DNA from: a virus
Lineage: Duplodnaviria; Caudoviricetes
IMG/VR virus record: IMGVR_UViG_3300006120_000023
Coordinates: 1 to 59,138 of that record
Length of the DNA stretch: 59,138 nucleotides
Reading direction: 5' to 3' (one strand)
Below are positions 3,159 to 44,777 of this stretch, piece by piece. The position numbers were made by a program, and so were the translations under genes. Position 1 is the first letter of the stretch; every line of letters begins with the position of its first letter. The notes beneath the pieces were generated by a model that saw only the letters and a list, made by a program, of their open reading frames with translations, was not told the origin of the DNA and made no database searches.

Positions 3159-4202
3159 TCAATAGATTCCGTAGCCGACGTGGAACACTGGGAGCCCCAA
3201 GTCAATGTGTGGTTGGTGTCCGGATCCCTTTGCCCTGAGGCAGAAGGAAACGTCTTCTCCGCTGCCGTCGTCTTTGGGCTGGAAGAAATTGAAGGCTCCG
3301 TCGGATTTGACTGACGCAAGCTCCGGGTGCTTCTTTTGGATGTCCTCAAATACCGTGCGGTGGACAAGCATGCAGCCGGTCGCCACCCAATCCACGGGAA
3401 TGATTGCGTCCTCGTAAGCTTTCGCCCGCGGAGCCAGCGACAGGTCACTGCACATCAGGGCGCCGTTCTCTTGACGCCCGAAGTAAGCCCCTCCAATGAG
3501 TGTCTTACCTGATCCGATAAGTCGATGCAATACATGCCGTTGCAACGGAACATCCGTCATCGTTCTGGTCTTTGACGGAACCCATGCCCGCATCCACCCC
3601 GGGCGACCGATCGAGGGGATGATGTCGTCATCCACCATCAGTAGCCACTTGGCGTCGGTCTCGAGGAATTGCTTTGCCAGCCTGTTCCTTGAATGATAGA
3701 TCATCGCGTCGCCGATCGACATTTCGTACCGGATTTTTTCCCGGCCAAAGTCAAGAGCCATAGCAATCAAAGCAAACGCCGTGACTGGGTTGGTGGTCTT
3801 GTAGCAGGGGAACCCAATCATGATGTCGCGTCCCTCGAACTCGCAGCGATAGGATGGAAGTCCCTCGGGGCTGCGGTATTCGATCACAGGGTTTGCCGAC
3901 TTCTCTTCCTTTTTGGCCTTGGGCGGCTTCAAAGTCTTGAGATTTCGTGCAGGCTTGGGTTCTTCTAAATCGACTGTGGAACGCTGTGGAACATCACTTT
4001 TTGGCTCAAAATCGACATTTTCCGGAATTAACGGGGGTGTTTCAGCCGGTTTCGCGGGGGTTTCGTTCCATTTTGGGTCAAATTGTCTTACCTCGGGAAC
4101 GACGGGCACGCCGTTACGCAGCATCTGGGTTGCGGGACCCTGAGCGGCAAACGGATTCGTGGACGCGGTGTATCTGACGGTGTTGACTTCGTCTCGGTTC
4201 AT
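3159..4202 (-). CDS. GT2-like glycosyltransferase with Pro-rich N-terminal extension
   Basis: SRNRLAKQFLETDAKWLLMVDDDI, VATGCMLVHRTVFE and GEDVSFCLRAK...HVG are typical phage GT2 motifs. Confidence 0.8.
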   Translation of the reverse strand: MNRDEVNTVRYTASTNPFAAQGPATQMLRNGVPVVPEVRQFDPKWNETPAKPAETPPLIPENVDFEPKSDVPQRSTVDLEEPKPARNLKTLKPPKAKKEEKSANPVIEYRSPEGLPSYRCEFEGRDIMIGFPCYKTTNPVTAFALIAMALDFGREKIRYEMSIGDAMIYHSRNRLAKQFLETDAKWLLMVDDDIIPSIGRPGWMRAWVPSKTRTMTDVPLQRHVLHRLIGSGKTLIGGAYFGRQENGALMCSDLSLAPRAKAYEDAIIPVDWVATGCMLVHRTVFEDIQKKHPELASVKSDGAFNFFQPKDDGSGEDVSFCLRAKGSGHQPHIDLGLPVFHVGYGIY

Positions 4203-9154: not shown

Positions 9155-9228
9155 TGGCTACCCCTCATGGACTCGAACCATGACAAACAGAGTCAAAGTC
9201 TGTTGTGCTACCATTACACCAAAGGGTA
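9155..9228 (-). tRNA. trnQ: tRNA-Gln (anticodon UUG)
   Basis: TACCCTT/AGGGGTA acceptor stem, GGTGTAATGGTAGCAC D arm, ACAGA-CTTTGAC-TCTGT anticodon arm, GGTTCGAGTCC T loop, encoded CCA. Confidence 0.95.
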
Positions 9229-11505: not shown

Positions 11506-12039
11506 CTATTCTGTCGGTGGGGCGCTGTCCCATTTTTCCGATTCCTCGCCGTGAGGCAGGGTTTCGGACTCTTGGGGCTCCCCCGCGGTCAGCGCCTCTT
11601 GCGGTAGCTGCACCACCTCGGCGTCAATCACGTCCCGGTGAGGCACGTTGAACAGCAGCTTCAAATCGGAGGCCGAGTTGATCTGCACCTTCTCAGGCGC
11701 GAACTCGCCGGCAATCCTCGCGTCAGCCAACAACGCGGCCAGTGCGTCGTAGGTCTCGCCGGTGTCCTTGTTGTAGGTCTTGGTCGGGATCATGCCCTCG
11801 GCCATTTGCCGAAGTACCTCGCGCTTCCGAGACAAGTCCATGACTGCGCGAAGCGCGACCTCTTCCCGGAACTCCTCGATCCGTTCCCGCACGCCCGGCG
11901 TCTTGTTCAGCAGGTTGTAGCCTGACTGGTTGGGGGCAGAGTTGTTCGGGTACAGGATGCGATAGGCTTCGGTGTACGTTTTGCCGGATGCGATCAGGTG
12001 GCAAAATTTTTCGTGGCGAGCGTTGGCGAGAGCGGGCAT
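11506..12039 (-). CDS. terS: terminase small subunit
   Basis: N-terminal LANARHEKFCHLIASGKTYTEAYR helix-turn-helix typical of TerS; upstream of terL. Confidence 0.85.
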   Translation of the reverse strand: MPALANARHEKFCHLIASGKTYTEAYRILYPNNSAPNQSGYNLLNKTPGVRERIEEFREEVALRAVMDLSRKREVLRQMAEGMIPTKTYNKDTGETYDALAALLADARIAGEFAPEKVQINSASDLKLLFNVPHRDVIDAEVVQLPQEALTAGEPQESETLPHGEESEKWDSAPPTE

Positions 12040-12263
12040 GAATGTGTGGTTGCTTTACAGAGTAGACTAAGATTTGTGAGACAAATAGTCGCAACAGAGT
12101 AACGTTGTCAACATCAAATCTGTTCAATTTAGAATCATTCTAAATAAGAGCTATCGCTGAGAATTTTCTTATGACACACGAAGCCCTTGCACACTACAGC
12201 CGGCCATTGTAGCGTTCACCTGTCGCCCGCGGTTTCTCGCCGTTGCTTGGCGGTGTTCTCTGC

Positions 12264-12314
12264 AAAGCCCTCGACCAGCAACCTGATGCCGCTGGTCGGG
12301 GGTTTTGTGTTTTT
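12264..12314 (+). terminator. intrinsic terminator-like hairpin
   Basis: AAAGCCCTCGACCAGC...GCTGGTCGGGGGTTTT followed by GTGTTTTT. Confidence 0.55.
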
Positions 12315-12485
12315 GTCAGAAAAAGTACCCATTTTTTCTGACAAGAGTTACCATTCAAATGTAGTACAACGCATTTACCATCAGCAAGTAGTAATGACCT
12401 AAACCTATTCACAAGTCACCGACCCTGTTTCCGCTTGAATTTACAAAACCTTGCCCTTTATGCAAAGGTATGTAGGGTTTGTTTT

Positions 12486-12562
12486 GCAGTCCAATGTTCC
12501 AAGGATAGGCGAGCGAGACTCCAAATCTTGCTGGGTTGGTTCGATTCCAACGGGCTGTGCCA
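12486..12562 (+). tRNA. trnW: tRNA-Trp (anticodon CCA) with atypical D arm
   Basis: GCAGTCC/GGGCTGT acceptor plus G-CCA; GCGAGA-CTCCAAA-TCTTGC anticodon arm; GTTGG-TTCGATT-CCAAC T arm. The D region is non-canonical. Confidence 0.85.
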
Positions 12563-12620
12563 ATTTCCCGGGGATCTTCGGTGAACCGGTGCGCTGATCG
12601 AAAGGTTGGCCGCGATAAAT

Positions 12621-12695
12621 CGGGGGAGGCAGTGAGGGGTCACGAATCCGACTTGAAATCGGAATGGTGATAGCGACCTGACCCTCCCCCGACCA
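12621..12695 (+). ncRNA. tRNA-like RNA with UGA (Ser) anticodon loop and CCA end, no canonical T loop
   Basis: CGGGGGAGG/CCTCCCCCG stem plus A-CCA; TCCGA-CTTGAAA-TCGGA; GTGA-GGGG-TCAC. Confidence 0.55.
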
Positions 12696-12836
12696 TGTAG
12701 CGTTTACGTGACATATCCCCGTTCACAGTAGCGTGAACACTACAAAAACAGGAACCCCGAAGTTTTCACCGATAGATGAAGTCAGACTTTATAAAAGGAC
12801 GCATTTTCAATAACCTAGCCTTCCGAAAAGGACAGA

Positions 12837-12943
12837 GTTACCGATCGGTAACATTTTAACCAAGTCAACGCTCGCAGTCCCAATTTATACCCGCTCGGTA
12901 ATAACCGCAGAGAATTACCCGTGGGCAATACCCGATCGGGTTT
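12837..12943. repeat. four related palindromic boxes (TACC[C]GATCGG-like)
   Basis: GTTACCGATCGGTAAC, TATACCCGCTCGGTAAT, ATTACCCGTGGGCAAT, ATACCCGATCGGGTTT. Confidence 0.7.
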
Positions 12944-13229
12944 ATCCCGGTGCCCCCAAATGAAGCGTAGCTTGATTAGCAGACGCTGGAATAATCACCC
13001 ATGAGGGGAATAACTACTCAACATCCAAACATCCAACCCCCAACCCCTCGCCATTTAACTCTCGACATCCAGCCCCCAACCCCCTACCCTCTCACTCGTA
13101 GCAGCCGACCCCCAACCCATCACAAATTGACCGGGTACCAACGCTACCTCGAGCCCCGTGCCTAACCGCCGGGGCTCGACCGTTTCAGGACCCAAAACAC
13201 CCAAATACATGGAGATTTACTAGAAACTC

Positions 13230-13458
13230 ACACTTTTTTCTATTTGCCATTACAAGGTATCCTAGAAAGTATAAAATTACAAATTGATATAATGATTTTA
13301 AGAAGTTCTTGTTATGGTTAAAAATATAGGGTCTATATGCTTGATGTACCAAAAACACGCGAATATCGTCCAGTTGCAAACTTTTCCCAAAATCGTTATA
13401 TCAATTTGTAATCCCGAACTTTTCTCTTGACTCCGCAATGGCAAATAGAAAAAAGTGT
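13230..13458. repeat. long AT-rich imperfect inverted repeat
   Basis: 22-bp perfect arms at 13230-13251/13437-13458 and 24-bp arms with 1 mismatch at 13276-13299/13389-13412. Confidence 0.9.
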
Positions 13459-24821: not shown

Positions 24822-24880
24822 GAAAAAAGTGCTTGTGCTCCCTAGCGGCTTGGGTAAATATATCCCCAGACAGTCAAACA
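24822..24880 (+). promoter_or_regulatory. early promoter/operator module 2
   Basis: A-tract, TTGTGC, CCTAGCGGCTTGGG, AT-rich -10 and CCAGACAGTCAAAC. Confidence 0.7.
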
Positions 24881-24892
24881 CACATACACACC

Positions 24893-25321
24893 ATGAGCAA
24901 CTACATCACCTCCGAAATCCTCGACCTGCTGAAGAGCCCCAACTGGGTTATCTTCTCCGCCCAAAATCCTGACGCCAAAAAACTCAGCGACGTCAACAAC
25001 GCCTCGCTGCACCGCCAGCTCGTTGAGCTTTACCGAAATGCCGGCATACCGTTTGAGACCGTGGTAGGCCGCTATAATGGCAACTACGAGGATGGGGTAA
25101 TCGTTTTTACACCTTGTGCAGTGGCCCGTAAGGAAGCTGCTGATCTTGCCAAGAGCTACGGCCAAGAAAGCGTACTGACCCACGAGGGCCTAGTCTATCA
25201 GGACGGCTCCTGCCACCCCGTGATCGACTGGAGCTTCCCCTGCAGCGAGCCCGAGGACAACTACACCCTGTTCCGGAGCACCTACTTCCGGGCCAACATC
25301 AACTTCGAGGAGAAAATCTAA
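24893..25321 (+). CDS. DUF3293-like protein
   Basis: WVIFSAQNP...N...G.Y...E...LAKSYGQESVL. Confidence 0.65.
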   Translation: MSNYITSEILDLLKSPNWVIFSAQNPDAKKLSDVNNASLHRQLVELYRNAGIPFETVVGRYNGNYEDGVIVFTPCAVARKEAADLAKSYGQESVLTHEGLVYQDGSCHPVIDWSFPCSEPEDNYTLFRSTYFRANINFEEKI

Positions 25322-35375: not shown

Positions 35376-38300
35376 TTAGCGGTATGTGACTACCGGTTTG
35401 AGATCTGCCAGAGCTTTCTTCAGATTGTCCAGTTCCGGCAGAGCTCTTTGGAGAGGCCATGCTAGGCTGGTAGATTTTAGGATCCCCGGGTGCGTGGTGA
35501 GCCCCTTGATGTGATAAATGTCCTTCAAGAATCCGATCGGTTTGCCGGCAACGCTCCAAGGATAGGAATAATGGGTGTTGTCCTGAAGAGGACGTGTACC
35601 CTTCTTGACCTCAAACAATCCGACGACGGTATCGTTGGGGAGGTCAAAAATCCAATCTGTCGAGAGGTCACGGGCTATGTCGTGGGGAAGAAGCCCCAGA
35701 CCCTGCAGCTCCTTTGCGCTGATCGGCAGGCTTGCCCTCTGCATCTGTTTAAGGAAGGGCTCCATGTCACCAAAGTTGAGCTTTTTGCCGCGGACAGCGT
35801 CAGCAAATTTGCCAAACGAGGTGATTTGCTTCCACTTAGAGCGAATGCCTTCGTCCATTTTTTTATCTTTGCTGGCAACGATAGAGGCAGACATTTCCTT
35901 GATCTGGGCGTCAAGCTGTTTCTGGGTCAAATGCTTGGTGTCCCGGGCCTGCTCCATAGCCTCTACGTATCCGAGCTGACCCGTGGGGTTCCTCAGGTGG
36001 TTGATAGGGCTCTGCAAAGTCACGGCGACCAGAACGCTGTCGGTACCATGCTTTTCGGCCAGCTTGTCTACGCGGTTGGCAAAGGTGGAGGCAGGGCCCT
36101 CGTTGGAAAAGGCCCATACGCCGTGATTCAGGAGGGTCATGTGCTCAGGCCCGCCCTGTGCCTCAACGCTTAGCTTTTTCTTGTCGCCGGTCGGCCCGAC
36201 ATACTTGGTGCCAATGCCCATGCGATCGGCGGGCAAAGCAAACATAGGTGTGTCCTCGTAGTCCTCAAGGTTAATGCGTTGCGAGGCGGGAAGGAAATTG
36301 ACAAGGATTTTGGGTTTGGCGACGAAATCGGCTTCGGGGTTGTTGACAATCACATGGCCCTGAAGATCTACACGAGGCTGCTCTTCCTTGGTCTTGGTTG
36401 GCACAATCGTCGAGTCGATCACGTAGGGGAACTCCTTGCCGTTCTCATCCTCGAGCATCACGGCGTTCATGCCGTGCAGGTCCTTGATCTTGATACCGAG
36501 GTCGTCGTTGACGTATTCCATCGGCAGGGTGCGGCGGAACCCGATTTCCTTCATCAGGGCATCGGTCTCAGGGACCGTCAGGCCGCGCTTGATCTTCAGG
36601 AACGGCTGCGAAACCTCGGAGTAAAGGCCGGCGGGCCACTTGTTGCCGTCAATGTCCACGCCACCGCTGCCCTCGACGTTCTGGAACCCGCGGAAGGTCA
36701 GGGCAGCCTTGGGGAATAGGGTATTGTGGATCTGCAGCGAGTCAAAATAGTCCGCCCACGTTGGGTAGTACGGGTTCGGGGTGCGCTTGACAACATCAGG
36801 CCCGGGAGGGAAGGAGACTTGGTGCTCACCGCCGGCTTCGCTTCCATCGTTTTGCCACTGCCGGAAGAACTCGTCGGGGTCCCTCATCATGCCGTTCTCT
36901 TCCGCATGCTTGCGGAGAGCGGCCTCTTCTACCTCTTTCCGAGGAGCTGTTCCCGAGGCTCCCTGTACACCTTCTGCACCTGAGCTTTGCGCTCCTCTGG
37001 CGACAGACGCGAGCCCGCCGAGAAGTCGATTCCGGTCGTCTTCGCTTTGGCCTCCAGCTTGGAGCCCAGCGCCTTGAGCTTGGGTGTAACTTTCAGGTTG
37101 TCGTTCATCAGTGGGGATAGTCTCCTCGGTTTCGGTTACCCCGTCAACGCCTTTTTTGGCGGGTAGGTAACGAACGTCCGGAGACTCCGGGTTAAACCGC
37201 TGGGAAAGAGGGATCAGATTGCCTTGGTCGTCGTAGGTTGCAGGGTCTGCTGATTTTATTTGTTCAGGTTCAAACGCAATGACATGGTATGTGTCATCAC
37301 CTACTCCCTTCATCTTAAACCTTTTAACAGTTTTATCAATTACGCCATCAAATCCTGCATTCTGGAGTGCTTGCCTAATAATTTCAGATGACGCAAGGTT
37401 TTCTTCATTATCAGTAGCGTAATTTATGCCTGTTTCTCTGCCTTTTAGGAAATTAATGGCATCTGATAGATTGATACTCTCATAGTTGGCTTGTTCCATC
37501 AACATGGCTGCTGCTTTGTCGGCATCAGCATCTTCAAAATTTTGAGATGCTTCTTTTAAGCCATCAATAAAATCAATTAGCGTTCCCGTAGGCTCTTCAT
37601 CTAATGGTTCACCCTCCTCGTCATAGGGATGCTCCATTTCCAGACGGGTTTCAGCTTTTCCACCTAGAATTGCTGGATTTTTAAGATGGACATAGGTTTT
37701 AAGCATTTTCTGCTCACCGCCACTTAATTCTTTTCTGGCTATTTCTTTTGCTGCTGCCGCTTTTTCTGCATCAGAAGCATAACCAACTGAATCTTCAATA
37801 ATACTTTCGTCTGCCCCATGCTGTTTCAGGAAATCACGCAGGGATGAAACTGTTTTTATATCATAAATATCGTTTTCAATCTGCTCTTTCCTTCTTTCAA
37901 TTCTATTCGTCAGATCTGGCCCCTCACCTGCATAGTTGGCTTGTGCATCTTCAGGAGATGATGAAAAGTAGAATCCAGCACCAAGATCATTTTCTATGTT
38001 TGCGCGGTCTTTCTTAAATACGGTGAAGTTATGAGTTGTTCCATGATGAAGCAGGTTTGTTGAATACCCAGCCTTCTTTGCCGCCTCGTCAACCAGCCGC
38101 TGCGCCTCTTCGGTGTTGCCTGACTCGATAGCCTTAGCGTGTGCCTCGTCCATCTTTTTGGCGGGTAAATACTGGATACCAAACTCCTTCGACTTCTTTG
38201 GTGTCTTGAAGATCTCACGACCCTGCTGCACCTCGGTAAGCTTGGTCTTCTTGAACATTGCGATTGCATCGAAGGCACCGTTGTACGATTTCGGGCTAAA

Positions 38301-41300
38301 GTAGCCCGCGTACCCGGCGTCCTCGATCATGTTGTCCATTTTCTCCCGGTTCATCATGCCGGCGACACCGAGCGGATCCTTGCTCAGGTCGTAGATGCTG
38401 TTTCCGTCAACCTTGGCAACATACGGCATGCGACCCTTCATCAGGCCCTCGTAGTTGCGGTCGTTGTTCAAATAGAAATAGGTCTTCGGGGCACCGCGGA
38501 GATCCATCGGGGTCGCGGCACCTTTGCCGAACTTCTTGGGGTCGGCAACTTTGAGCCCGGAGGCGCCAAAGTGGACTAGATCGAGCTCGCCACCGACGCT
38601 GCCTTCCTTCTCTTCGGAGGAGTGCTGGACGGTGAGCTTTTTGGCGGGGAGATAGCTGATGAAGGGAGAGACTTTGCTTTCGGCAGCGTTTCCATATTCG
38701 GCACGAGGTCCGAACTCTGTCTCGAAGAGTTTGTTACGCACCTTCAAGGCATTCTCACTAACGGGGGACCCGAGCAGAACATCCGCCCCTTCTTCTTGTG
38801 CATATTTTGCGATTTCTCGGTACAAGGCTTCCCCGTAGCCTTTACCCCGCAGCCCTTCTGAGACGATAGTGTGAACGATCTCAAGAGCGTTCCCATATTC
38901 GTGGAGTTTTACCTCCGCCGATCCGATATTTTTACCCTTATCGTCGAACAGGTAAATGTGGTGCGTTCCGAACTCACTATTGTCCGAAGAGGTAACGCTA
39001 TACTTTGGCAACCTAGCCTTCATCTTGTCGAGCTCTTCCTGAGTCGGCACTGGCTTGGTCTCGCCTTTGGCAGGCAAAAAGCTCACGTTTGCCCGGTCTC
39101 CGTACACGGGATTCTTTACAAAAACTGTGTTGCCGACACTCACGGCTTCGTCGCCTCCAGTAACAGGCTCGTCGGTCGCCTTGTCGTAAAAATAGGAATG
39201 CTCCTTGGGGTCAAACCCTACCGGGGTCCAGTCGTTAATATCCTTGGGGATCTCTCGGGAGGGATTGAAGTCTCCGGTGACCGTTGCGATTGGGAATTTC
39301 TTGCTTTCCCCACGATAGATCTTACCCGCCCCGGTCTCGTTGGAAACGAACGTCGGATTGTCAACGCGGGCCACGGTGTCGTAGCCAATAACCTCACCGA
39401 CTTTGCTAGGCGTCCCCTTTTCGTGGACGGTGACAACGTAGTTGCCGGTGCGGTTAAATGCTGGGATGTCAATACGGAGGGCCACCGGATAACCTTTTTT
39501 GAGGCCCCGGGCTGCCCCAAACTTGGGCTGTTTGCTGGAATCAAGAGCTGCCTTGGCTTCTTCTTCCTTAGGCTGATTGAGGAATTTTTCGTTTTCCCCA
39601 ATCTCGCGGGTAATCTTGGCAGGCAAGAAACTTGGTCCCTGCTTGGTCCCAGCTTGGGCCTCTTTCTCGGCTGCGTCAATGAACTCCTGAGGCAGTGCGA
39701 TGTTTTTCTGCTCAGCAAACGGACGCTCGGTGACAGGCACGTAGCCTTTCTCGCCCTTCTTGGCGATGTTGCCCTCCTCATCCCGAAGATGTGGTCCGTA
39801 GTTGACCCAGCTATTTTGGGCCAACGTCTCCGCGGCCAGTGCAGGTTTGGCAGCGTCAGAGAACATGCGGCTGTGCTCCAGATAGGCGTTGAACTCACCC
39901 TTCGGACCAAACTCGTACCCATGTGCCCCGTGACCCACAATGTCGTGCACAACGCGGAACACGTCGTTGACCGGTACGTTCTCGGCACCATTGAAGTTGA
40001 CCCCAGAGTCCTGCAGCATCGGGTTTTCTGCACGCATCTTTGGCGTGATACCGGATTCCCCATACCCTTCTTTAGTCTGGAAGTAGTACAAGTGCTTATT
40101 GTCACGCACGTCCTTCATCATCTCAGCCGAATTGGAGTATGGCTGGCCTTCACCAGTCCAAGGAGTGGCGGTATACCCAGCTTTTTGGAAAGCTTTCCAC
40201 TGGTCAACAACCTCGTTGGCAAGTGCCGTGTACGCCTTCTTGACCTCGGGGTTCGTGGGTTCGTTTTTGGCCTCTTCGTAGTGGTCGGCGATGCGTTTTG
40301 CAAGCTCTTCATTGACCGGAACTGCCTGCCCGTGGGGGTTATACGGCATGCTAGCACCCTCAACATAATCCTTGGAAACCCGCTGCACGTCTTGATTTGC
40401 TGCCCTTGTAGGCTGGGCGTAGGGGGTGCGCTGGTCTGGCTGAACGTAGGTTGCTTTGGCTGCACCAAGCCCCTTCAAGATCGGATTGGGCTTCTCCTCT
40501 TCCTGAGGTCTGATAGCCGGCTGCTCTCCGTCCCGGGAGGGCAGGAAGTTCAGTTTTTGCAATTCGTAGTTGACAGGAATCGGGTGCGCCGAGCTCTCAA
40601 GCATGTCGGCCACAGCGTCCGCACGCACCGACATGATGGTGCGATTGGCGTCCTTGCCGCGGGGATCCCCCTTGCGGCGGGGGATGACGGTCCGGTCGGG
40701 GTTATTGCCACGGAACTCGTTGCTGGTGAGGTTGAGGAAATCGTTGAAGATGTCTTTCTTTTGTTTCGCAACCTTGGGGTCCGGATCGAGCCCGGTCTCA
40801 CCCTTGCGGGCAACCAGATTCTCTTCCTTCTCCCTTTCCTCGGGAGGAAGGGTCGGGTCCACCCACTGTTTGAGGTGGTTGGGCAGATAGTCGGTGATGA
40901 ACTGTTGGAAGAACGCCTCGCGGCTCCCTCCCCAAAGTGCCAAGCGACCGGAAAGTCGATCTGCCCACAGGTTCATCTTGTCAAAAATACGAGAGACCGA
41001 GATGCAGGTGATCAGGAAATTTCCTTCCTTGCTGAAGTGCATGCCGATCGGCACCAAATCGTAAATTTTCGGAGCAAACGACACCGCACGACCGCGGTCA
41101 TCTATGCGGGCAGCGTAGTCAATTATCATGCGCCGGCCCTCTCCCGACTGGAGCAGGTCGTTGAACCGCAAAATCACATCCTTGATCTTTGCCGGCACAA
41201 TCTGCTCGGGGAGAGCCCGGAGGGCAGCAATTTGCTCGGGAGTAAAGTTTCCGCGGTAGGTGAGACCGTCCTCAGACACAGGGCGGAAGCCCTCAGGCTC

Positions 41301-44300
41301 TCCCTTGTAGGCGTTGTCAAGGGCGTCGCGGATGAGCTGGGCACGGGTCTTGACAATCTGCTTGATCTCACGCTGCGATAGCATTTCCGGCGTCTCGCCG
41401 TCAGCCTTCATCACAATTTCACGGGAAACCTTGATTGTCCCGCCCTCAGGGACCTGCATTCCCGCCACCTCGGCGGGTGCGTTTCCATACCCGCTGCGCT
41501 GGTTCAGGGCGCCGTTTTCTTTGCCCCACAGCCCCTCGGAAGCCATCGGATCGGAGACCACCCCGTGGCTGACCACGTTTCCGTCCTTGTCGTAGACAGT
41601 CGCACGGAACTCGGTCTTGAACAGCCCGGAATCCTTGCCGTATTTTTCACGGAGATCTTTGCGTGCAGCGAGCTTGGCACGAGTAATCATCGGCATCACC
41701 GACTCACTGGCCGTGGGGGACGATACCATACCGTTGAGCTTGCGGAACTCACGGAGGGCATTCCGGTATGCAGCGAGCACCTCGGGGGAGAACTTGGCAC
41801 CGGTCGCCACCGATAGGGTGTTGGAATAGGGATCCTTACCCCCTGCCCCAAGGAAATCTTGGATTGCCCGGTACCCCTTGCTGTTTTGGGCTTTGAGGGA
41901 TAGCCAATCCATCATGTGCTGGCCAAAGGAGTCCAAAGAATCAAGGTTCCGGTTTGTGTACGCTTGGCTGTTGAGGTCGGCCCGGACCTCGCGCTTCATG
42001 TAGTCCGCCACCTTGCCCTCATCGAGACGATCGTGTAGCTCGTCCCAGTGGCCGCGGTTGATCGCCCACTGCTTCGGATCCTTGACCTCTTTGAGGTACT
42101 TGTTGGTGTACATCTCCACCAGAGCCTTGTTGCTGAATTGGCCGGTCCTGCCCGTGAGCGGGTCATCGAAGAGTCCCTCCTCGGCATCGGCATTCAATTC
42201 ACGCCACTCGGGGACAACATCCAGCAGGTGGCCGAACTCGTGGCGCATGGCTTCGTACAGGGACTGCCGCTTCTGGTGGGCTTCCTCCATCAGGTGGTCA
42301 ACATTTATGACCGCGGTGGGGTTCAGGGGGTCAAACACCACCTTGCTGCCGTCAGGGCGCAGGGCTGCGGGGAGATCTTTTCCGGGGATGAATCCCTGCC
42401 TGCTAATCCCGGCAGTGAAATGCCCGCCCTCTACGATCGCGTCAATCTGATCGGGGGTGAGGTTGGGATTATTTTTCTTGAGCTGTTCACGAATCTGGTC
42501 GCTGTTTAGAATCTCGATCTTGGCATTCTTTGGCCCGACCCGCATGGACCCGTTGATGTCATTGTGGAACGCGGTCAGAAGGTTCAGGAGCTGCCGCTCG
42601 TAAGCCTGCCGTGTGGCAACGTTGGCCTGAGAGACTGCGTCGAGCTGTTTCTGGGCCTGATCAAGTCGATCTGCGGAAAGTTTTGCCTGCTTCTGGTCCC
42701 CTGAACTTACTGCCGAGGCATAGGCAGCCTTTGCCACGTCCACATCGGATTGGGCCTTTGCGATCACGTTGTCGAAGGAAACAAATCCCTTGACGTGATC
42801 CACTGTCTCGGGGCTCATCTCGGACATCGTCTTGAAATTATCGACATCCTGCTGGCGGAGTTTCCGAGTTATCGTAGCGGGGTCTTGGCGCAGTATTTTG
42901 TGATACGTCTTGCCGAGGGCGGCAAACAGGAGACCGCTCTTGGCGCCCTCCATGATGTCGTCGTAGTTTTGGGAATTGAGGACTCCGGTAGCCGCCCCAA
43001 GGGCAGCCATGTTGACTCCCTCCTTGCCGTAATCCAGCAAGAGATTTCCAAGTGCATCAATCGTCCTCCCGTGCTTCTCAAACAGGTTCTGGGTGAGCTT
43101 GGATACCTCGGGGGTCTCCCCGGCAGTCTGGAACATCCCCTTCTTGCCACCCGCGGAGATTGATCGGGCAAGCGACAGCTCCTCGAGGGTGCGGGGCACC
43201 GCGGCAGCCAGCTTGATTCCTTTCAGTCCGGCAGCCTCCGTAACAATACCACCAAGGGCTCCAAGGACGGGATTCTCTTTGTCCTCGTGCGCTCCGATAA
43301 TTGCACCCGGGCTGTATTTCACGATCGGCGCACCTAGCTTGGCCAGCCGCGGATAGTTTTCCGCAAAATTGCTTGCCGCCTCCTGCAGATTGTCAATCAG
43401 GTCGGCTGTCTTTCCGGCGATCTTACCGAACCCCGAGAGCTTGCTGCGGTCTACGACTCTCTTGGCGAGCTCTGAGGCCTCCAGTGCCTGCTGGGCTTCC
43501 TTGGACATCGTCATTGCACGGAACAGCGGCTTGGCGTTCCTTGCGACGGTCAAAAGATCGCCGGCAAATCCGATCTCCCCAAAACCTCCGACGGGGTTTG
43601 TCCAAGTGCCAAACTCACGGATGTCCTTGTCCACGGAGCCCTGCTCTTTCTCAACCTGCCCGGCAACTTCTTGGGCTGCGCGGGTCACTTCCTCGTCATT
43701 CAACCCCGGAGCCGTGGAATGAATCAGGGACTTGAGCCCCTCCTGCACCCAAGGGTGAAACACCATCTGGCCGTAGACCGTAGGGTGTGCGCGGTTAAGG
43801 GTTGCGTTGGCGGTGTCTACAAGTTCACGGGCCTGCCACCTACGGAAGCGATCCTCGTCAGTCGTCCCGGTGAGGGCGCTTGCTTTTTTGAGAGCCCAGT
43901 CCGTGACCCCCAGTCCGCCAGCGGCCATCTTTTCACCAGTCCACGCCAGAGCCCCCGGGAGCTCGAGAGTTGGGGCGATATAGGAACGGATTGCGACCTC
44001 GGGGGCAACTGGGGCTCCGGTGGCTGCGGCGGATTGCCTCCCGGCTTCAATCGCATCCGTGTACGAGGCACCATTCAGCTTGGCCTTCAGCGCCCCGTGG
44101 ATAAAGTTCCCCGCGGCCTCGGACCTATCTTGAGACGCCTCGAGAGCGAGCCGGTTGGCTTCCTCTTGCGGGGTGCCGGCACCTGCGGCAAATAATTTGC
44201 TTGCCGCTAGGTTGGACAACGTCCGGACAGGGCTAGACCAGACCGAGAGTGCGTCATTGAATTTCAGGGCTCCCTTGGTAAAATTTTTCGCAGTCTCCGC

Positions 44301-44777
44301 AAGACCTTCAGAAACACTTGGGTGCTTTAGTTCACCGGCCTCGTCGGCTTCCCAGACCTTCCTCTGCTGGTCGGTGGGCATTGCATAGTCCGGACGGAGC
44401 TGCTTCAGCTCATAGAGGTCTTGGGGCTCCCAAGTGCCCATCAGCTTCTGATGGCCGGGGTCAAGCTGGTTGATGTCTTTATTTTGATACTCCGCGGCAA
44501 GCTGCTGCGCTTTTGAATAGTCCGGAACTTCTACTCGGGACTTTGCGTAGATTTCGTTTTGCTGCGTCTGCTGCTCAGGGGGAAGGAACTGCACGTTGCT
44601 GCCTTCCAAGGCAACCGATTGATACAGCTGTTCGGGCGTCAAGAACGGCGTGGCCTTTGGCGTGGCGTCCGGAAGCTTTTTTGAGGATTCCACCTCAGCA
44701 TTGTCCTCATGCAGCTTGACAAGCTGATCAGGAGGTAAAAATGTCTGGGGCTTTGTTGTATCAGCGTTGTCCGACAT
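35376..44777 (-). CDS. giant polyvalent internal virion (ejection) protein, 3133 aa
   Basis: Last of the ejection-protein block. Contains HEFGH zincin, VHDIVGH metallo-domain, GNAT (LRGKGYGEALY), two ART-like modules (HHGT...GFYFS...GFDGV) and a kinase-like module (GGEH..VVK..DLHGMN..VID). Confidence 0.85.
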   Translation of the reverse strand: MSDNADTTKPQTFLPPDQLVKLHEDNAEVESSKKLPDATPKATPFLTPEQLYQSVALEGSNVQFLPPEQQTQQNEIYAKSRVEVPDYSKAQQLAAEYQNKDINQLDPGHQKLMGTWEPQDLYELKQLRPDYAMPTDQQRKVWEADEAGELKHPSVSEGLAETAKNFTKGALKFNDALSVWSSPVRTLSNLAASKLFAAGAGTPQEEANRLALEASQDRSEAAGNFIHGALKAKLNGASYTDAIEAGRQSAAATGAPVAPEVAIRSYIAPTLELPGALAWTGEKMAAGGLGVTDWALKKASALTGTTDEDRFRRWQARELVDTANATLNRAHPTVYGQMVFHPWVQEGLKSLIHSTAPGLNDEEVTRAAQEVAGQVEKEQGSVDKDIREFGTWTNPVGGFGEIGFAGDLLTVARNAKPLFRAMTMSKEAQQALEASELAKRVVDRSKLSGFGKIAGKTADLIDNLQEAASNFAENYPRLAKLGAPIVKYSPGAIIGAHEDKENPVLGALGGIVTEAAGLKGIKLAAAVPRTLEELSLARSISAGGKKGMFQTAGETPEVSKLTQNLFEKHGRTIDALGNLLLDYGKEGVNMAALGAATGVLNSQNYDDIMEGAKSGLLFAALGKTYHKILRQDPATITRKLRQQDVDNFKTMSEMSPETVDHVKGFVSFDNVIAKAQSDVDVAKAAYASAVSSGDQKQAKLSADRLDQAQKQLDAVSQANVATRQAYERQLLNLLTAFHNDINGSMRVGPKNAKIEILNSDQIREQLKKNNPNLTPDQIDAIVEGGHFTAGISRQGFIPGKDLPAALRPDGSKVVFDPLNPTAVINVDHLMEEAHQKRQSLYEAMRHEFGHLLDVVPEWRELNADAEEGLFDDPLTGRTGQFSNKALVEMYTNKYLKEVKDPKQWAINRGHWDELHDRLDEGKVADYMKREVRADLNSQAYTNRNLDSLDSFGQHMMDWLSLKAQNSKGYRAIQDFLGAGGKDPYSNTLSVATGAKFSPEVLAAYRNALREFRKLNGMVSSPTASESVMPMITRAKLAARKDLREKYGKDSGLFKTEFRATVYDKDGNVVSHGVVSDPMASEGLWGKENGALNQRSGYGNAPAEVAGMQVPEGGTIKVSREIVMKADGETPEMLSQREIKQIVKTRAQLIRDALDNAYKGEPEGFRPVSEDGLTYRGNFTPEQIAALRALPEQIVPAKIKDVILRFNDLLQSGEGRRMIIDYAARIDDRGRAVSFAPKIYDLVPIGMHFSKEGNFLITCISVSRIFDKMNLWADRLSGRLALWGGSREAFFQQFITDYLPNHLKQWVDPTLPPEEREKEENLVARKGETGLDPDPKVAKQKKDIFNDFLNLTSNEFRGNNPDRTVIPRRKGDPRGKDANRTIMSVRADAVADMLESSAHPIPVNYELQKLNFLPSRDGEQPAIRPQEEEKPNPILKGLGAAKATYVQPDQRTPYAQPTRAANQDVQRVSKDYVEGASMPYNPHGQAVPVNEELAKRIADHYEEAKNEPTNPEVKKAYTALANEVVDQWKAFQKAGYTATPWTGEGQPYSNSAEMMKDVRDNKHLYYFQTKEGYGESGITPKMRAENPMLQDSGVNFNGAENVPVNDVFRVVHDIVGHGAHGYEFGPKGEFNAYLEHSRMFSDAAKPALAAETLAQNSWVNYGPHLRDEEGNIAKKGEKGYVPVTERPFAEQKNIALPQEFIDAAEKEAQAGTKQGPSFLPAKITREIGENEKFLNQPKEEEAKAALDSSKQPKFGAARGLKKGYPVALRIDIPAFNRTGNYVVTVHEKGTPSKVGEVIGYDTVARVDNPTFVSNETGAGKIYRGESKKFPIATVTGDFNPSREIPKDINDWTPVGFDPKEHSYFYDKATDEPVTGGDEAVSVGNTVFVKNPVYGDRANVSFLPAKGETKPVPTQEELDKMKARLPKYSVTSSDNSEFGTHHIYLFDDKGKNIGSAEVKLHEYGNALEIVHTIVSEGLRGKGYGEALYREIAKYAQEEGADVLLGSPVSENALKVRNKLFETEFGPRAEYGNAAESKVSPFISYLPAKKLTVQHSSEEKEGSVGGELDLVHFGASGLKVADPKKFGKGAATPMDLRGAPKTYFYLNNDRNYEGLMKGRMPYVAKVDGNSIYDLSKDPLGVAGMMNREKMDNMIEDAGYAGYFSPKSYNGAFDAIAMFKKTKLTEVQQGREIFKTPKKSKEFGIQYLPAKKMDEAHAKAIESGNTEEAQRLVDEAAKKAGYSTNLLHHGTTHNFTVFKKDRANIENDLGAGFYFSSSPEDAQANYAGEGPDLTNRIERRKEQIENDIYDIKTVSSLRDFLKQHGADESIIEDSVGYASDAEKAAAAKEIARKELSGGEQKMLKTYVHLKNPAILGGKAETRLEMEHPYDEEGEPLDEEPTGTLIDFIDGLKEASQNFEDADADKAAAMLMEQANYESINLSDAINFLKGRETGINYATDNEENLASSEIIRQALQNAGFDGVIDKTVKRFKMKGVGDDTYHVIAFEPEQIKSADPATYDDQGNLIPLSQRFNPESPDVRYLPAKKGVDGVTETEETIPTDERQPESYTQAQGAGLQAGGQSEDDRNRLLGGLASVARGAQSSGAEGVQGASGTAPRKEVEEAALRKHAEENGMMRDPDEFFRQWQNDGSEAGGEHQVSFPPGPDVVKRTPNPYYPTWADYFDSLQIHNTLFPKAALTFRGFQNVEGSGGVDIDGNKWPAGLYSEVSQPFLKIKRGLTVPETDALMKEIGFRRTLPMEYVNDDLGIKIKDLHGMNAVMLEDENGKEFPYVIDSTIVPTKTKEEQPRVDLQGHVIVNNPEADFVAKPKILVNFLPASQRINLEDYEDTPMFALPADRMGIGTKYVGPTGDKKKLSVEAQGGPEHMTLLNHGVWAFSNEGPASTFANRVDKLAEKHGTDSVLVAVTLQSPINHLRNPTGQLGYVEAMEQARDTKHLTQKQLDAQIKEMSASIVASKDKKMDEGIRSKWKQITSFGKFADAVRGKKLNFGDMEPFLKQMQRASLPISAKELQGLGLLPHDIARDLSTDWIFDLPNDTVVGLFEVKKGTRPLQDNTHYSYPWSVAGKPIGFLKDIYHIKGLTTHPGILKSTSLAWPLQRALPELDNLKKALADLKPVVTYR

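Follow-up and report, generated by a model that had tools for sequence, protein, structure and literature searches.

What is a 75-nucleotide (nt) stretch of phage DNA that ends in CCA and carries a perfect-looking anticodon arm, if it is not an imitation of a tRNA? The question is raised by an element at positions 12621-12695, plus strand, of the IMG/VR record IMGVR_UViG_3300006120_000023, the whole of which (59,138 base pairs (bp), with a completeness estimate of 94%) was analysed and is hereafter termed the window. The original prediction described the element as a mimic of tRNA-Ser(UGA) serving as a decoy for tRNA-targeting defence nucleases, or else as a new tRNA-like RNA class that standard scanners would miss. 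As judged from its sequence and from those of its relatives, the element is one copy of a structured small-RNA gene family of many uncultured, mostly freshwater phages, matching no known RNA family. The parts of the window copy, with helices designated P1 to P4, are as follows.

12621-12629 (+): 5' strand of P1, CGGGGGAGG, pairing with 12683-12691, compensatory changes at 5 of 9 pairs
12630-12639 (+): conserved 5' core, consisting of the CA bulge, P2 (GU), G, P3 (AGG) and loop GG; invariant columns of alignment A1
12640-12671 (+): variable apical domain, consisting of P4 (UCAC/GUGA), an internal loop, the anticodon-like hairpin UCCGA-CUUGAAA-UCGGA and U; one of 19 interior types
12672-12682 (+): conserved 3' core, consisting of AGCGA, P3' (CCU), G and P2' (AC); invariant columns and covariation
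12683-12691 (+): 3' strand of P1 (CCUCCCCCG; also given as CCTCCCCCG), placed by sequence and covariation
12692-12695 (+): 3' tail ACCA, placed by tail counts across relatives

The literal features reported earlier are all present, namely the 9-bp terminal helix CGGGGGAGG/CCTCCCCCG followed by ACCA, the letters of a mini D-like hairpin GTGA-GGGG-TCAC (12632-12643), of an anticodon-like arm TCCGA-CTTGAAA-TCGGA (12647-12663) and of a T-like hairpin GGT-GATAGCG-ACC (12666-12678), the 58-nt gap after the tRNA-Trp that ARAGORN places at 12486-12562, and the lack of a long variable arm and of a TTCRA-type loop, the T-like loop being GAUAGCG. The rod that had been offered as an alternative fold is the minimum-free-energy structure, at -37.1 kcal/mol; shuffled sequences average -24.0 (z -4.40), and none of 200 reaches the stability of the element. 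The cloverleaf, at -30.2 kcal/mol, is 6.9 kcal/mol worse. In the ensemble, the pair probability of the D-like and T-like hairpins is 0.0 and that of the anticodon-like stem 0.91-1.0; the T-like hairpin also sits 4 nt (TGAC) from the 3' strand of P1, unlike in a tRNA. The window holds a single copy of the element, and the assembled contigs that span it (one each from two of the four DNA runs) show no variant letters and no joints. A protein-coding reading was rejected, the overlapping open reading frames (ORFs) being just 44 and 61 amino acids (aa) long and the interiors of the family measuring 30-54 nt, often not multiples of 3.

Relatives were first collected through the small terminase, which gave 11 loci. 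In two of these (L002 and L006) the first 19 nt and the last 22-26 nt are identical to the window and the 32-nt interior is swapped for an unrelated one of about 51 nt; in L009 a third interior type is present, and the whole unit lies elsewhere, after a tRNA-Gln and on the terminase strand. Since the interiors differ while the ends stay, conservation does not extend to the anticodon-like arm, and the placement in L009 suggests that the unit travels in one piece, its own upstream promoter-like sequence included. A second set of 39 loci was obtained through the large terminase, and fuzzy matching within it revealed diverged copies in L007, L040 and L054 whose changes are compensatory: P1 reads CGGGCGGGG/CCCCGUCCG or CGGAGGAGG/CCUCCUCCG, P2 reads UU/AA or AU/AU, and the bulge and loop letters are the same as in the window. 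A core search pattern (GGCANTGAGGGG, a gap of 28-58 nt, then AGCGACCTGA) matched 97 IMG/VR stretches and yielded 65 distinct element sequences, to which all counts out of 65 below refer. Five relatives of 58.6-69.2 kb, estimated to be 93-100% complete, carry one copy each. In L076, two tandem copies (3683-3762 and 3819-3909) have unlike apical cassettes and unlike P1 helices.

Outside this set, a pattern scan of metagenomes returned 11 stretches, of which four contained the element and seven had no basal helix, and the exact 32-nt interior of the window, used as a pattern in viral contigs, gave 0 matches. Among cultured phages, blastn with window positions 12100-13400 found no match, and the operon of L086 as query brought up 18 records, all at E of about 1-3 and none with more than 13% of the query covered; these were taken as chance. 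Rfam gave no match on the window element either at gathering score or at E <= 10, nor did its families match the element or most of the modules beside it in four loci, the exception being one abiF module treated below; no description of the motif was found in the literature searched, the supplements of the cited papers not being covered.

The structure was deciphered from alignment A1 (65 sequences), in which pairs were counted on 64 rows over 15 basal pairs, that is, 960 cells. Of these cells 97.6% are paired, with double changes at 7 of the 15 pairs, a level reached by 0 of 500 shuffles; when the 3' partner was slid by 1-3 columns as a control, only 37-63% were paired. The pair of columns 13 and 96, the latter not fixed by the search pattern, is AU in 29 rows, UA in 27, GC in 6 and CG in 2, and unpaired in none. 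The first pair of P4 is formed in all 64 rows by five pair types, and the conserved internal loop can therefore be delimited as GG on the 5' side and UAGCGA on the 3' side. G-U pairs occur in 28 of 64 rows at columns 5-102 and in 7 at columns 9-98; on the other strand these would be A-C mismatches, and the RNA therefore lies on the plus strand. From the 5' end the consensus runs U(-1), P1 of 9 bp, the CA bulge, P2 of 2 bp, G opposite G, P3 (AGG/CCU), GG, P4 with the variable domain, UAGCGA, the 3' strands, A-C-C and a U-run. Overall, the element RNA is predicted to be a rod of covarying helices and unchanging loop and bulge nucleotides, capped by a swapped apical domain.

Other readings of this architecture were tried and rejected. 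A tRNA-Sec-like reading of the minus strand, with anticodon UCA, is ruled out by the plus-strand G-U pairs and by the lack of an Rfam match. A kink-turn consists of a 3-nt bulge followed by tandem G.A and A.G pairs, and GG/UAGCGA would by sequence place G rather than A at position 1n and leave a bulge of 4 nt. Readings of the core as a loop E, an 11-nt receptor or a T-loop were dropped by eye, the defining nucleotides being missing.

The strand-specific G-U pairs also bear on the proposal that the locus is a site acting as DNA, such as a packaging site, an origin or an operator. Such a site would suit the 1.4-kb divergent intergenic region beside the small terminase gene and the palindromic repeats around it, but the G-U pairs are present on one strand only, the place of the element with respect to the terminase genes varies (in L009 and L040 it follows a tRNA-Gln, and its strand relation to the small terminase is the other one), and a promoter of its own and a U-run occur in fixed orientation; we hold a DNA-level role to be extremely improbable. 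A ribozyme or ligand-sensing RNA, with the internal loops as active site or binding pocket, would account for invariant nucleotides that cluster in internal loops flanked by covarying helices, a pattern that fits both classes. It is nevertheless quite improbable, as no ribozyme or riboswitch of Rfam matched at E <= 10 in four loci, there is no conserved downstream gene to regulate (the commonest neighbour is an upstream terminase large subunit, at 26 of 65 loci), and the stand-alone units end in a putative terminator.

It is in the apical domain that the family varies. At a similarity threshold of 75% the interiors of the 65 sequences form 19 unrelated types, 30-54 nt long and usually with one hairpin (two in 9 of 65), and the same interior type is found on different basal helices, which points to exchange by recombination. 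With an anticodon-like hairpin defined by a stem of at least 4 bp and a loop of 7 nt whose second base is U and whose sixth is a purine, such a terminal hairpin is present in 2 of 65, namely in the window (CUUGAAA) and in L134 (GCCGA-CUUAAAA-UCGGC). In the sole other sequence with the window cassette, L153, the closing A-U pair is disrupted and the 3' tail reads AUCCC, and homologous short cassettes present the loops UGAAAUU (L072, L076 and L120) and GGCAA (L094). By these comparisons, the anticodon-like hairpin of the window is just one local swappable cassette.

The mimicry proposal, either as a CCA-ended tRNA-Ser(UGA) mimic that decoys anticodon nucleases or, more widely, as a display scaffold on which each cassette mimics a different host RNA hairpin, has to be weighed against this variation. 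In its favour are the 5-bp stem and CUUGAAA loop of the window and the corresponding hairpin of L134, whose loops share a U in second place and AAA in places 5-7 with tRNAs for codons that start with U, together with the acceptor-like ends and the tRNAs in the operons. Against it, anticodon-like cassettes amount to 2 of 65, homologous cassettes carry other loops, L153 combines a broken closing pair with an absent CCA, there is no T-loop and no variable arm, the ensemble probability of a cloverleaf is 0, and neither ARAGORN nor the tRNA and tRNA-Sec models match. Homologues thus keep neither the anticodon loop nor the CCA (the full ACCA is encoded in 14 of 65), the outcome that the original prediction had itself named as contradicting it; with the interior replaced and the covariation incompatible with the D-like and T-like hairpins, tRNA-Ser mimicry as a decoy for anticodon nucleases is very improbable.

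The comparison with tRNAs proper leads in the same direction. ARAGORN calls only a tRNA-Gln (9155-9228, minus strand) and the tRNA-Trp in the window, Rfam places nothing on 12621-12695, and canonical tRNA arms are likewise rejected on the loop GAUAGCG, the 4-nt gap to P1 and the zero probability of the D-like and T-like hairpins, whose partners UCAC and GGU are absent in relatives; covariation pairs columns 13-96 and AGG/CCU instead. Identity as tRNA-Ser calls, according to PMC5389517, for a long variable arm and a G73 or U73 discriminator, and the element has no variable arm and a discriminator-like base A (A in 57 of 65). Likeness to tRNAs and to the 9/3 allo-tRNAs (Mukai et al. 2017, PMC5389517) exists in the GC-rich 9-bp helix, the discriminator-like A, CC(A), U(-1), the location in a phage tRNA operon and the possibility of drawing the window copy with an anticodon-like arm. 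Unlike them, the element is without a T-loop, a long variable arm and a long D stem with tetraloop, its 3-bp hairpin is not contiguous with the 9-bp P1, and the tRNA-Sec model matches the neighbouring tRNA-Trp only; covariation shows the helix continuing as a rod, and the supposed anticodon arm is a non-conserved cassette. The original interpretation is borne out in part: the class is real, was missed by ARAGORN and Rfam and has acceptor-like ends, but its body is a rod rather than a cloverleaf.

At the ends of the element, U precedes P1 in 60 of 65 sequences, and P1 is followed by A in 57, C in 53 and C in 49; the fourth position is T in 45 and A in 14, and T fills each of the next four columns in 58-61. 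The family 3' consensus is accordingly ACC and then a U-run, with ACC (2-3 nt) intervening between helix and U-run; in an intrinsic terminator the U-run adjoins the GC-rich stem directly. In five loci (L084, L089, L120, L103 and L093) P1 is preceded, at a distance of 6 nt, by a sigma-70-like promoter, for example TTGACA-N16-TAGGAT, and with a putative terminator at the end the stand-alone element of about 85-95 nt therefore has the make-up of a complete small-RNA gene. As predicted from these signals, the element can be a complete transcription unit in some loci and elsewhere, the window included, the closing module of an operon that also holds tRNAs and further small structured RNAs; in loci of this second kind 57-300 nt of other modules lie between promoter and element. 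The order in the window is promoter-like site, tRNA-Trp, module B, element and module D, with the modules around the element located as follows.

12451-12478 (+): promoter-like site TTGCCC-N16-TAGGGT, ending 7 nt before the 5' end of tRNA-Trp
12486-12562 (+): tRNA-Trp (anticodon CCA) with encoded CCA, first operon module, called by ARAGORN
12563-12620 (+): module B, a hairpin whose covarying stem bears the conserved 16-nt loop GGGAUCUUCGGUGAAC, a second hairpin capped by GAAA, and an AU-rich linker with U(-1) as its last base
12696-12745 (+): module D, a hairpin with GTTTAC/GTTCAC/GTGAAC repeats, fold z -4.16

The tRNA-Trp is an unusual one. When the whole window was scanned, it did not reach the gathering score of the Rfam tRNA family; the model that fits it best is tRNA-Sec, with 28.7 bits where the cutoff is 47, and the tRNA-Sec alignment gives it a 6-bp anticodon stem. 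A Trp-like tRNA precedes the element in 11 of 65 sequences. Hairpins had been predicted on both sides of the element; that of module D is borne out by its fold score, while 12563-12620 is energetically unremarkable (z 0.07) and yet holds the motif conserved in relatives. The core motif of module B is found 46-62 nt before the element in 30 of 65, and its stem triplet covaries among relatives (CCG/CGG, GUG/CAC, GCG/CGC and GGG/CCC); module B has no Rfam match, and tandem CUUCGGNGAA units of it occur in some loci. Module D is kept in the close relatives of the window and is followed by a T-run in L015 and L017.

Further modules were observed in the operons of relatives. Module A (GCCUGACC, a covarying stem with loop GGCCAAUGGA, and AGCGAGGGC) lies at about 3497-3458 on the minus strand of L002 and also in L006, L015 and L017; it occupies the place of the window's tRNA-Trp and has CCUGACC and AGCGA motifs in common with the element. 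Another module of about 80 nt, GGAAUCAUUGCUGG...CCAGCAGUUAUUCC, stands upstream of the element in 10 of 65 operons (for example L086, L111, L114, L137, L082 and L133) and has no Rfam match. Beyond module D, to about 12960, the window contains repeated palindromes of the ACCGATCGGT and ACCCGCTCGGTAATA type; these and the GTTCAC/GTGAAC half-sites are possible operator sites ahead of early genes. No protein neighbour of the element is constant, and two clusters of 74-89-aa ORFs (from 21 and 13 loci) were set aside because they overlap RNA modules and look spurious.

Could the element then be a processing or stability device only, an elaborate terminator or 3' cap that shields tRNA and small-RNA operons from exonucleases and has no role as a free RNA? 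It is the last operon module in every locus read, it has a GC-rich helix followed by a U-run, and a variable interior is what would be expected of stuffer. The stand-alone units, with a promoter 6 nt upstream, have however nothing to protect; a terminator does not require the invariant CA, G/G and GG/UAGCGA; the conserved CC between helix and U-run should weaken intrinsic termination; and the close relatives of the window lost the U-run and kept the element. We regard this explanation as unlikely, though it retains an appreciable chance.

The same end features recall regulatory RNAs. C4 of phages P1 and P7 and CI of P4 are phage antisense RNAs cut out by RNase P, and an antisense regulator of this kind, acting in trans or in cis, would have its scaffold cut from a longer transcript and its cassettes setting the mRNA target or immunity specificity. 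The conserved scaffold with variable apical loops, a putative U-run terminator of the sort typical of base-pairing small RNAs, the RNase P-like end features of the family and the tandem copies of L076 with different cassettes are all consistent with it. Complementarity is nevertheless no better than for non-cognate cassettes: between a cassette and its own flanks of ±3 kb the longest perfect match is 7-11 nt, against non-cognate means of 7.2-8.9 and maxima of 9-14, and over the whole window the cognate cassette reaches 10-11 nt of Watson-Crick pairing against 9-14 nt for 18 foreign cassettes. No Rfam family was matched at E <= 10 in a library that should hold the c4 antisense family, and antisense action needs no invariant internal loops. 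The element resembles C4, CI and pre-4.5S RNA (for the last, PMC11143913) as a small RNA with an end helix, an RCC-type tail and variable loops on a constant scaffold, and resembles C4 and CI in its presumed release from a longer transcript. It differs from C4 and CI in showing no similarity of sequence or model, no cognate complementarity nearby or genome-wide, and internal-loop motifs that are different and invariant. An antisense regulator is thus a minor but not negligible candidate.

Hints at what the family may do come from its operon partners. The abiF RNA motif (RF03085) lies directly upstream of the element in L133 (6150-6186, 41.9 bits against a cutoff of 37); in L009 (6692-6728) it scores 33.0 bits, below the cutoff, with E 3.4e-4; and a motif search found it in 3 of 65 operons, these two and L106, where it lies about 103 nt before the element. 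According to PMC12373285, RNA that carries abiF motifs binds the AbiF toxin directly and so neutralises it, in the manner of a type III antitoxin. No Abi_2 protein is encoded in the five records searched, three of them motif-bearing; it thus seems that an antitoxin-type RNA without its toxin, an orphan, shares the operon of the element in these phages, and it may act in counter-defence. Like abiF RNA and type III antitoxins (PMC12373285), the element is a small structured RNA with conserved loops on covarying stems, for which protein neutralisation is proposed; unlike abiF RNA, it has no RF03085 match of its own, the matches sitting in a separate upstream module of L133 and L009, and no toxin gene beside it, and unlike type III antitoxin RNAs it is not tandemly repeated, save for the two unlike copies in L076.

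A second comparison is offered by the Y RNAs, a subject of PMC4201824. Y RNAs bind Ro60, the protein reading bulges of the basal helix. They share with the element a length of about 100 nt, a conserved bulged basal helix, a variable apical part and a U tail. The motifs differ, there is no Rfam Y RNA match, and no TROVE/Ro domain was detected among the 63 window ORFs scanned with Pfam. The same 63 ORFs contain no RNA-binding or RNA-processing families, which points to a host partner.

The preferred explanation joins these clues to the ends of the RNA. RNase T is stopped in its trimming by C residues. According to PMC11143913, the determinants of RNase P cleavage include U(-1) and a discriminator-C-C sequence that pairs with GGU in the RNA of RNase P, and the enzyme also has hairpins, pre-4.5S RNA among them, as substrates. 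The family has, by sequence, the corresponding helix, U(-1) in 60 of 65 and A, C and C in 57, 53 and 49 of 65. On the proposed reading, enzymes of tRNA processing would mature the element RNA, RNase P cutting after U(-1) with the aid of the A-C-C tail and 3' exonucleases trimming the U-run back to ACC, and the product would be a very stable RNA of about 75-100 nt. The invariant loops would then bind one specific protein, most likely a host RNA-binding or RNA-targeting toxin or nuclease, and titrate it, the RNA acting as a decoy or antitoxin mimic, while the apical cassettes would vary under an arms race or tune specificity. That the RNA is a stable protein-binding decoy or antitoxin mimic matured by tRNA-processing enzymes is a tentative proposal, to which we give clearly less than an even chance; taken as a whole, a phage small-RNA family with this maturation and decoy role is the best explanation at hand, held a little short of even confidence.

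Several observations weigh against that explanation. Because the search pattern required the core letters, the lack of variation in the core is, for most of the 65 sequences, built in to some degree, although the copies found without this requirement (those from fuzzy matching, and those that covariance model R1 picked out in 48 terminase-anchored loci of 349,955 bases) still keep the core exactly. The close relatives of the window have no U-run after ACC, and the window tail, ACCAUGUA, has none either, so that the 3' end of the window element is undefined; a terminator scanner also lists none there. The window promoter is weak by consensus and was not listed by the scanner; at the matching place relatives have TTGACA-N16-TAGGAT. 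No cellular counterpart for a decoy to imitate was found: the exact pattern gave four chance matches in genome contigs, all in actinobacterial DNA and with the helix absent, and model R1, run on Actinomycetota only, found nothing in three genomes of those matches or in 151 Actinomycetota genomes. The abiF link extends to 3 of 65 operons with one match above the Rfam cutoff, and two of the three abiF-bearing records are estimated to be 12-16% complete, an AbiF gene elsewhere in them being possible. Finally, all functional steps, the partner protein included, are inferred from sequence.

A bolder form of the decoy explanation would make the family a modular platform, in which an invariant scaffold matured by tRNA enzymes carries exchangeable cassettes and every cassette would copy another host RNA hairpin; the window, for example, would present the anticodon arm of tRNA-Ser(UGA) and L134 that of tRNA-Leu(UAA). 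We consider this rather improbable.

The phage behind the window is tailed, with a small terminase gene at 11506-12039 (minus strand) adjoining the element region, and with plus-strand genes for a family A DNA polymerase, a helicase, a primase-like protein, an exonuclease and a dNMP kinase. The element locus is thus a 1.4-kb divergent intergenic region with packaging genes on one side and early/replication genes on the other. Elsewhere the window encodes a 3,133-aa polyvalent protein with kinase, ADP-ribosyltransferase and GNAT acetyltransferase domains (35376-44777, minus strand) and a 162-aa protein matching DUF3293 and the S-adenosylmethionine lyase family (24833-25321, plus strand), with a possible anti-restriction role.

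Phage small RNAs are far less charted than phage proteins, and the family described here is abundant (97 IMG/VR stretches by the exact core pattern alone) and absent from Rfam. Its covariation is unusually clean, with loop nucleotides unchanged across phages whose terminase proteins are only 59-91% identical, and it unites three traits: an acceptor-like end, an invariant core of the type recognised by proteins, and a cassette-like hypervariable domain. For annotation, it cautions that a perfect-looking anticodon arm can be an incidental cassette. The family provides a test case for phages borrowing the tRNA maturation machinery to make stable non-tRNA RNAs, and the operons that it shares with tRNAs and an antitoxin-RNA motif make it a concrete candidate for RNA-based counter-defence. 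If the platform idea were true, phages would exchange cassettes to blunt different RNA-targeting defences, alongside orphan abiF RNAs and spare tRNAs, in dedicated anti-defence RNA operons.

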